Virus record (IMG/VR): IMGVR_UViG_2740892370_000006
DNA length: 6,394 nt
Reading direction: 5' to 3' (one strand)
Source of the DNA: a virus
Lineage: Duplodnaviria > Heunggongvirae > Uroviricota > Caudoviricetes
Below, piece after piece: positions 3,265 through 4,560 of the stretch. The notes beneath the pieces are model-generated. The model saw nothing but the letters and a program-made list of their open reading frames with translations. It did not search any database and was not told where the DNA came from. Numbering within the stretch: the stretch's first letter is position 1; each line of letters opens with the position of its first letter. A program made the position numbers and the translations under genes.

Positions 3265-4212
3265 TCACTCTCCTTTGATGCGAATGCCAGCAAGCCAGTT
3301 TCTTATGCCGATATATTCAGCGTTCCTGAAACCGCTTTTTACATATATAAATGGCAAGCGAAGATTGTGACCATTGACTGCCAGGTAGTCTTTACAACCC
3401 TGTTCGGTGAAACAGCAGGTAACGAATTCATCAATATCTTTCACAGCAACGCGCCGCCATTTTTCTGGTGGCTCTCGAAAGTTTTCATGAAGTAGCTCGA
3501 GACGACGACTATGGCGTTTATTGGCTTCATTGCCATCTTCGTCAACCCAGACAATCCGGTCATGGTCATAATCAGCATCAACAACGATTTCGCGCTTTTG
3601 ATACACACAAAACATGGGATCTGACGTTATTCGATTGTCCTGTGTTCGAATATTTTCACCGATGATGCCAAACGAATCTGGTGCAGATTTTGTCTGCATC
3701 TCTTCGATACGTTCAGCCATCGCAGCACACTCTTCAAAGTTGCTTAATGCTTTTCGCTCCCATTCGGCGCATTGTTTTTCCAGTTCTGCTATGCGCTTAC
3801 TTCCATCCGCGATTACTCCCTCGTAATATTCACGCTGCTCGTTGAGTTTTGATTTTGCTGCTTCAAGCTCAACGCGCAGCTTCCCTACCGTTAGCGCAAT
3901 ATCCTCGTTCTCCTGGTCGCGGCGTTTGATGTATTGCTGGTTTCTTTCCCGTTCATCCAGAAGCGCCAGCGCAACATTTGGATTAAAGGCAGCAATAAAT
4001 TCAGCGTTTGCGTAAGCCTGAGCATCTGTTTCAACCAGGCAGTTAACATGACATTCTGCAATCACGCCACCGGGTTCTCCTTTCCATTTTTGACAAACAA
4101 AAACTCCTGTTATATTCCCATGCTGATTGCCCGATGTATGCCCTACGATGTAGCATCCTTTAGTTGCTTTCTCTGCTGCTTCACGCAGCGCCTGATAGTC
4201 AATCTCGCTCAT
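3265..4212 (-). CDS. Ea22-like prophage protein (conserved N-terminal domain, central coiled coil, variable C-terminal domain)
   Basis: 315-aa ORF. The N-terminus MSEIDYQALREAAEKAT... matches my memory of ead/Ea22-like proteins. The central ELEAAKSKLNEQREYYEG...ELEKQCAEWERKAL segment is coiled-coil-like. The ATG at 4212..4210 overlaps the stop of the upstream small ORF (ATGA). Confidence 0.75.
   Translation of the reverse strand: MSEIDYQALREAAEKATKGCYIVGHTSGNQHGNITGVFVCQKWKGEPGGVIAECHVNCLVETDAQAYANAEFIAAFNPNVALALLDERERNQQYIKRRDQENEDIALTVGKLRVELEAAKSKLNEQREYYEGVIADGSKRIAELEKQCAEWERKALSNFEECAAMAERIEEMQTKSAPDSFGIIGENIRTQDNRITSDPMFCVYQKREIVVDADYDHDRIVWVDEDGNEANKRHSRRLELLHENFREPPEKWRRVAVKDIDEFVTCCFTEQGCKDYLAVNGHNLRLPFIYVKSGFRNAEYIGIRNWLAGIRIKGE
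3269..3291. repeat. 23-bp junction cassette TCTCCTTTGATGCGAATGCCAGC (copy A), repeated at 5016-5038
   Basis: 22 of 23 identity with 5016-5038. Both copies begin exactly 5 nt from the complement of a minus-strand ATG (cat at 3261-3263 and 5008-5010) and supply its AAAGGAGA Shine-Dalgarno. Confidence 0.8.
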
Positions 4213-4385
4213 TCATCGCCCCACTCATCACAATATGCTTCGACCGCAGTTTTCCCTGCTTCATAATCATCACGCCATGCTTCAGCATCAGCAGCACTGC
4301 CACCACGTAACTCTGCATAGTCCATTAACAGTTCATGCCATTCTTCAAAACTGACGCTGTATTTAGTTGAACCAAAATCAGCCAT
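4209..4385 (-). CDS. Small acidic protein, 58 aa
   Basis: My translation MADFGSTKYSVSFEEWHELLMDYAELRGGSAADAEAWRDDYEAGKTAVEAYCDEWGDE. Strong SD GAGGAGG 6 nt upstream of ATG 4385..4383; the stop overlaps the Ea22-like ATG. 16 D/E against 4 K/R. Confidence 0.55.
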   Translation of the reverse strand: MADFGSTKYSVSFEEWHELLMDYAELRGGSAADAEAWRDDYEAGKTAVEAYCDEWGDE

Positions 4386-4386
4386 T

Positions 4387-4560
4387 TTATTCCTCCTCTT
4401 CGTCTTTTATTTCGTGATATGAGTAATTGCAGTAGTTAAAGAAAATATCTTTTGCTTCGTCATGTATTTCATCAGGCGTCGCATCATCATCCACTTCGAA
4501 TTCATCCTCGAAATCTCCACCGGCTATTCCCGTTTCAATAATTATTTTAAACTTTCGCAT
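4387..4560 (-). CDS. Small highly acidic protein, 57 aa
   Basis: My translation MRKFKIIIETGIAGGDFEDEFEVDDDATPDEIHDEAKDIFFNYCNYSYHEIKDEEEE. ATG at 4560..4558; the TAA lies 1 nt before the next ATG and its 3' end carries that gene's SD. 20 D/E against 5 K/R. Confidence 0.5.
   Translation of the reverse strand: MRKFKIIIETGIAGGDFEDEFEVDDDATPDEIHDEAKDIFFNYCNYSYHEIKDEEEE

Follow-up and report, generated by a model that had tools for sequence, protein, structure and literature searches.

T7 Ocr, ArdA, and T7 gp5.9 are among the closest described counterparts of the two proteins considered here. These proteins mimic B-DNA and thereby act as inhibitors of RecBCD or of type I restriction enzymes; as a class, DNA mimics are small, rich in aspartate and glutamate (Asp+Glu), and of low isoelectric point (pI of about 3-5), with a negative charge that is conserved across the family. 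Their surface carboxylates follow the arrangement of the phosphates in B-form DNA, and they bind and inhibit a DNA-binding protein. ArdA is shared by phages and conjugative plasmids, and gp5.9, a 52-amino-acid (aa) acidic inhibitor of RecBCD, is encoded by a gene that stands before the exonuclease gene 6. Another point of reference is given by the small proteins of the exo-xis region of lambda and Shiga toxin (Stx) phages (Orf60a, Orf61, Orf63, Orf73, and Ea8.5), which are non-essential, early, and encoded beside Ea22-type genes; the exo-xis genes are reported to affect lysogenisation and induction (PMC3824215, PMC7093339, PMC6213356). The locus compared with these systems here lies in a 6,394-nucleotide (nt) stretch of Caudoviricetes DNA (IMG/VR record IMGVR_UViG_2740892370_000006; the whole stretch is referred to as the window), whose minus strand carries, at 4209-4560, two adjacent open reading frames for acidic proteins of 57 and 58 aa (ORF A and ORF B, or A and B). 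Both genes are conserved and coupled, their products are strongly acidic and predicted to fold, and their distribution is wide and patchy. The two products may act by stoichiometric binding to a host or rival protein, at a positively charged surface that normally binds nucleic acid; this would be nucleic-acid mimicry in a broad sense, and the reading was assigned a probability of roughly 40%.

Two coupled genes from unrelated acidic families

The following features of the window define the pair:
4387-4560, minus strand: ORF A, a 57-aa acidic protein of the DUF7167 family, RefSeq WP_001224661.1 (Pfam, PHROG, AlphaFold2)
4209-4385, minus strand: ORF B, a 58-aa acidic protein, PHROG 519, RefSeq WP_000753068.1 "hypothetical protein" (PHROG, AlphaFold2)
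4392-4398, minus strand: Shine-Dalgarno sequence GAGGAGG of ORF B, inside the EEEE codons of ORF A and 6 nt before the ATG (direct sequence reading)
4567-4589, minus strand: putative initiation leader of ORF A, consisting of AGGAGG (4589-4584), a hairpin (4584-4567), and AGUUAA, with the AUG at 4560
4209-4212, minus strand: ATGA overlap between the TGA of ORF B and the ATG of an Ead/Ea22-like gene (direct sequence reading)

An earlier, sequence-only reading had reported two adjacent small ORFs here, with 28-35% Asp+Glu and net charges of about -12 and -15, and the computed values agree. Both can be read on the minus strand; ORF A contains 20 acidic residues (35%), with a net charge of -15 and a pI of 4.07, and ORF B contains 16 (27.6%), with a net charge of -12 and a pI of 4.05. 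Six-frame translation of the window gives 57 ORFs that reach 40 aa or more, with a median charge of +0.044 per residue; ORF A (-0.263) and ORF B (-0.207) are far more negative than the next in rank (-0.045).

The proposed stop/start coupling was also confirmed, as the TAA of ORF A (4387-4389) is separated from the ATG of ORF B by a single nucleotide (4386). The strong ribosome-binding context that had been attributed to both ORFs is present for ORF B (GAGGAGG at 6 nt) but not for ORF A, before which no Shine-Dalgarno sequence was found at normal spacing; its AGGAGG lies 26 nt from the ATG, with the hairpin between. This hairpin comprises 7 GC-rich base pairs closed by a GAAA loop, with a predicted stability of -15.5 kcal/mol for the hairpin alone. 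Judged from the nucleotide sequence, looping out of the hairpin would leave the Shine-Dalgarno sequence about 6 nt from the AUG of ORF A, a position from which it could serve initiation. Hairpin-bridged initiation sites of this kind are those of T4 genes 38 and 25, which the ORF A leader resembles. The only variants observed in the 5′ arm of the hairpin are C-to-T changes that keep G.U pairs, and the leader stays with the gene where the upstream context changes, across a mosaic junction. In the Stx2a phage ArgO145, such a junction lies directly upstream of the TCAGGAGG-hairpin leader of ORF A.

The ORF A allele of the window encodes 57 aa, compared with 60 aa for the common allele (...EEEEQNG; L002/L003). 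A CAA-to-TAA change (window 4387-4395, minus strand) cost the protein its last three residues, and replaced an 8-nt overlap with ORF B by the 1-nt gap. At the other end of ORF B, the -4 overlap is kept in all 74 IMG/VR loci with a readable downstream ORF.

The AT-richness of about one third GC that had been noted for the pair holds for ORF A (36.2% GC), but not for ORF B, whose GC content of 45.2% is like that of its neighbours (44.9-45.9%; 48.7% for the window). The suggestion that the pair is a horizontally acquired moron did not survive. No promoter-like or terminator-like sites were found on the minus strand between 3900 and 5200, so that A and B lack signals of their own; this, together with their translational coupling to the rest of the operon, disqualifies them as a moron in the strict sense.

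Conservation of the reading frames was followed in 80 IMG/VR loci, namely those with an E. coli-type ORF A, ranked by A identity. ORF B follows ORF A in 80/80, and is intact in 74 of these loci, which were not chosen on B, with a ratio of non-synonymous to synonymous polymorphism (pN/pS) of 0.28. The variable sites of ORF A are distributed over the three codon positions as 0/0/13, a figure that is biased because the loci were ranked by A identity. Same-length homologues of both proteins, at 40-70% identity, occur in other genera and phage families, and their motifs and length are kept down to about 40% identity. ORF A and ORF B are real, coupled, conserved genes under purifying selection.

RefSeq annotations exist for both proteins, and the families too had been catalogued before; what is added here to these hypothetical proteins is a family assignment, fold predictions, the conserved charge, and the distribution. 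ORF A matches Pfam PF23768 (DUF7167) over profile positions 1-60 of 60, with 55.3 bits and an E value of 7.1e-15 (the gathering cut-off for the whole-protein hidden Markov model score being 24.4 bits), and matches phrog_1997 end to end (E 7.5e-31). Membership of DUF7167 adds no mechanism, because this family has no assigned function. AlphaFold2 modelling from the family alignment predicted a beta-hairpin (strands 2-8 and 17-23) followed by a helix (29-43), with a mean predicted local distance difference test score (pLDDT) of 87.7. The helix is followed by a conserved CNYxYHEI segment and by a DEEEE acidic tail. Net charge in the A family has a median of -13 and a range of -16 to -7 (44 proteins), and the acidic positions E9, E22, D25, D26, E35, and E50 are more than 90% conserved. 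Sequence periodicity, combined with the AlphaFold2 secondary structure, suggests that D30, E31, D34, E35, and D38 form an acidic stripe on helix 29-43, opposite the hydrophobic residues I32, A36, I39, and F40. In Pseudomonas phage PsgM04F, a 64-aa ORF (L013 2310-2504; the same in L014) lies immediately upstream of the DUF7167 homologue, and by eye appears to be a diverged second DUF7167-like copy, with an MRxRV start, a C-N-x-F-G-F-E motif, and an EEEE tail.

ORF B has no Pfam family (Pfam scan at E values up to 1), and matches phrog_519 with an E value of 1.2e-20, over profile positions 76-137 of 143 only. The same profile was matched by all 39 diverse ORF B homologues tested, and true homologues are nearly all stand-alone proteins of 50-65 aa; an exhaustive HMMER search gave 74 cluster representatives for the family. 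The fold predicted by AlphaFold2 from the family alignment is a three-helix bundle (helices 13-27, 34-42, and 47-55; mean pLDDT 85.4), and W16, W37, Y41, and G44 are conserved in the family. Net charge has a median of -10 and a range of -15 to +1 (35 proteins). The confident fold predictions suggest that A and B are structured domains rather than disordered acidic tails.

Comparison of the two family profiles with hhalign gave a probability of 0.1%, and the predicted folds also differ, which rules out tandem paralogues: the families are unrelated, so the pair is not a tandem duplication.

Distribution and gene neighbours

The window matches E. coli chromosomes at 100% identity (e.g., NZ_CP027219.1), where it belongs to a Rac/Stx-like lambdoid prophage. 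The minus strand encodes, in order, a repressor/cro-like protein, YdaT, replication genes, DUF1627, DUF977, a zinc-ribbon protein, ORF A, ORF B, the Ead/Ea22-like gene, and further small genes; these are followed by a parDE pair in the opposite orientation, and then by DUF968 and RusA. By this gene order, ORF A and ORF B belong to the delayed-early rightward operon, with the replication genes on one side and the RusA/Q region on the other. A search of the window for tRNAs and known RNA elements found none. The two genes that flank the pair are:
4654-5010, minus strand: upstream gene, zinc-ribbon-like protein of 118 aa with a basic coiled-coil tail (phrog_1621)
3265-4212, minus strand: downstream gene, Ead/Ea22-like protein of 315 aa (Pfam PF13935, E 3.3e-45)

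The 118-aa upstream protein carries a zinc-ribbon-like CHH...CxxC motif. In most of the 80 loci, its gene precedes ORF A by 97 nt, and because of this linkage, the conserved E. coli module can be described as zinc-ribbon - A - B. The gene that follows ORF B (4209-4230, minus strand; loci L019-L098) always begins with MSEI[ND]YQ at the ATGA overlap, after which an Ead/Ea22-like protein is encoded in about 10 of the 80 loci, and another, unrelated protein (MSEINYQEGHETAGQAKPVAWRYRY...) in about 65. This shared start, followed by divergence, marks a recombination junction about 20 nt into the downstream gene. The A-B-Ead block of phage ArgO145 is part of an exo-xis-like operon made up of small genes and Ead/Ea22-like genes. 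Of 5,426 complete E. coli genomes, 2,567 contain the 601-bp region, 1,272 of them over at least 80% of its length.

Outside E. coli, A and B travel separately. Searches of 50,697 phage records with tblastn (E up to 0.01) gave 38 matches for A and 200 for B, and a scan of species-representative genomes gave only 4 loci for A. In Klebsiella, Serratia, and Yersinia prophages, A occurs without B in a variable slot that separates the recombination genes from xis/int (early-left "ea" slots); in Klebsiella Guernseyvirinae, it lies directly upstream of a DUF2800 PD-(D/E)XK exonuclease; and further homologues were found in Enterococcus Herelleviridae and in Phapecoctavirus. A conserved partner of A was sought among these loci and rejected: the Serratia, Yersinia, Klebsiella, Enterococcus, and Phapecoctavirus neighbours are related neither to B nor to the zinc-ribbon gene, nor to one another.

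The 200 phage records with B include many Ackermannviridae, the autographivirus phiKDA1, and the P22-like Salmonella phage UPF_BP1, in which the B homologue (46% identity) comes after an Ead/Ea22-like gene. B was also found on 554 plasmids, of which 516 are conjugative and most are IncI2 plasmids of about 60 kb (86% identity). On the IncI2 plasmids, the operon beside repA reads CaiF/GrlA regulator - DUF1187 - B - SPFH/Band 7 - NfeD (CP088666.1, 8348-10980). When B was considered as a possible gene of the plasmid leading region, no relaxase was found within 9 kb of it. DUF1187, the operon neighbour of B on these plasmids, is itself a small prophage-type protein. On IncU and IncT plasmids, B lies within long arrays of small hypothetical genes. 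Both genes have the behaviour of promiscuous accessory genes, at home in phage early operons and, in the case of B, also on conjugative plasmids; a patchy distribution of this sort is typical of accessory or counter-defence genes.

Possible modes of action of A and B

In the favoured explanation, a Rac/Stx-like lambdoid prophage carries A and B as accessory genes that are not related and move independently of each other; they would be transcribed as part of the delayed-early operon, behind the replication genes, with coupled translation. Each would give rise to a compact, folded mini-protein, with an extremely negative surface as its conserved hallmark. In the mode of action judged most likely, the protein would act stoichiometrically: shortly after induction or infection, it would occupy a positively charged surface with which a host or competitor protein binds nucleic acid, and so impair a nuclease of a defence system, a complex for repair or recombination, or a protein of the nucleoid or of transcription. 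The presumed benefit would lie in counter-defence or host takeover. By sequence, T7 Ocr carries -0.239 charges per residue (29% Asp+Glu, pI 4.05) and T7 gp5.9 carries -0.154 (25% Asp+Glu, pI 4.08), so that the charge density of ORF A exceeds that of Ocr, and that of ORF B exceeds that of gp5.9. A and B thus have the compositional profile of DNA mimics, and negative charge is conserved across both families, as it is in that class. Like Ocr and ArdA, they are small, phage- or plasmid-borne, and early, with a pI of about 4 and 28-35% Asp+Glu. ORF A shares with Ocr an acidic C-terminal tail, and B resembles ArdA in being common to phages and conjugative plasmids.

Several observations weigh against this explanation. 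High acidity is necessary for DNA mimicry, but is far from sufficient. A Pfam scan at E values up to 1 assigned neither protein to Ocr, ArdA, Gam, or any other functional family: ORF A gave DUF7167 and a sub-threshold match to AnkX_ins, and ORF B gave nothing. Profile searches of all PDB chain sequences at E values up to 10 returned only noise for A and B, and the homology to anti-restriction or anti-RecBCD proteins for which the sequence-only reading had proposed to look is thus lacking in both searches. Foldseek comparison with the PDB gave no significant match (best E values of 0.39 for A and 7.1 for B), and comparison of A with BFVD returned only uncharacterised proteins of about 57 aa, including those of phAPEC8, Lactococcus phage 949, and a Streptomyces phage. 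Neither family is mentioned in the literature searched by names, accessions, identifiers, and peptides. For A, the search terms DUF7167, PF23768, the WP accession, the PHROG identifier, and peptide strings gave nothing relevant; for B, the two apparent matches to phrog_519 were prefix artefacts (identifiers such as phrog_5197), and again nothing was relevant. The identifiers of both families are also absent from the supplements of two anti-defence surveys. No gene neighbour is conserved across the A and B lineages to indicate a target. Several phage records annotate an "exonuclease" beside A, but a general A-exonuclease link was rejected, since the Enterococcus "exonuclease" is a DUF3850/ASCH protein, and a true PD-(D/E)XK enzyme is found only in Guernseyvirinae. 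Finally, ORF B is broken in 6 of the 80 IMG/VR loci and at least two relatives carry a truncated ORF A, which indicates that both genes are dispensable in resident prophages. Two further scans also gave no characterised match: NCBIfam returned nothing but one sub-threshold match for A, B, and four neighbour proteins, and PADLOC assigned none of A, B, or their neighbours to a defence system.

A different role, possible though doubtful, is that of developmental or host-physiology modulators comparable to the exo-xis small proteins (Orf60a, Orf61, Orf63, and Ea8.5), acting perhaps with their neighbours. A and B would then tune the lysis-lysogeny decision or induction together with the zinc-ribbon or Ead/Ea22-like protein, rather than counter a defence. 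The resemblance to exo-xis proteins in size, timing, dispensability, and proximity to Ea22-type genes is consistent with this, as are the exo-xis-like operon around the A-B-Ead module of ArgO145, the recurrent zinc-ribbon gene at -97 nt, the constant start/stop coupling of B to the next gene, the Ead/Ea22-like gene beside B in UPF_BP1, and the effects of exo-xis genes on lysogenisation and induction cited above. However, the module of the window lies in the early-right operon, after the replication genes, and no homology to the lambda exo-xis proteins was detected, since no lambda record is among the tblastn matches listed for A and B. The gene after B is usually not Ead/Ea22, and among distant homologues of either protein the neighbouring genes are altogether different. 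B is also common on plasmids and in virulent phages, which make no lysogeny decision.

A more specific proposal, in which A and/or B act like Ocr, ArdA, or gp5.9, mimicking B-DNA and thereby inhibiting RecBCD or type I restriction enzymes, is improbable. The match in composition and pI to Ocr and gp5.9, and the acidic tail that A has in common with Ocr, argue in its favour. So does the position of the genes in some lineages: in P22-like and Klebsiella prophages, the slot occupied by A and B comes right after the recombination/anti-RecBCD module, and A of Guernseyvirinae, which is similar to gp5.9 in size and acidity, lies within a replication module of exonuclease, Gp2.5-like single-stranded DNA-binding protein, and DNA polymerase, immediately upstream of the exonuclease gene, as T7 gene 5.9 stands before gene 6. 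These neighbourhood associations are, however, positional and inconsistent between lineages, and the window has no exonuclease gene adjacent to A. Neither protein shows homology or a fold match to Ocr, ArdA, Gam, gp5.9, or Abc2. In particular, A and B, each about half as large as Ocr, have no sequence, profile, or fold match to Ocr or ArdA; A has no sequence similarity to gp5.9, and its predicted fold has no PDB match. Neither predicted monomer resembles an elongated mimic of the Ocr/ArdA type.

It is very improbable that A and B have little or no function, as hitch-hiking or decaying sequence or as a moron with its own expression signals, because, although ORF A is AT-rich and some alleles are truncated or frameshifted (the window A having lost its last three residues), the variation in A is synonymous only, the pN/pS of B is low, length and motifs persist to about 40% identity, the folds are confidently predicted, and the coding strand has neither promoter nor terminator for genes that are coupled into the operon.

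It is rather unlikely that A and/or B are the founders of new families of nucleic-acid-mimic inhibitors directed against a DNA-binding defence, repair, or nucleoid protein. If this were so, the A-B pair, present in about half of complete E. coli genomes, would represent a common two-component counter-defence cassette, and the families would range over temperate and virulent phages of Gram-negative and Gram-positive hosts, with B extending to conjugative plasmids. Inhibition of a host DNA-binding system by A or B would define a new and extremely compact DNA-mimic fold of about 57 aa, would assign a function to DUF7167 and PHROG 519, and would explain a cassette carried by the prophages of about half of complete E. 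coli genomes, the Stx-converting phages of enterohaemorrhagic E. coli among them.

Other features of the window

The parD/parE (RelE/ParE family) toxin-antitoxin pair, at 1640-1897 and 1903-2202 on the plus strand, lies inside the minus-strand operon. A hairpin at about 2283-2318, read by eye as a GC stem with a T-run, stands behind it, and this pair is the insert of the window that does look like a moron. An intact 171-aa ORF at 2748-3263 on the minus strand matches phrog_9263 (E 1.2e-123) and, weakly, a PHROG annotated as "DNA repair protein"; its D...(12)...E-A-K motif is suggestive of a PD-(D/E)XK nuclease. In RefSeq, only 3085-3263 of this ORF is annotated, as a frameshifted pseudogene, which may be an annotation artefact.

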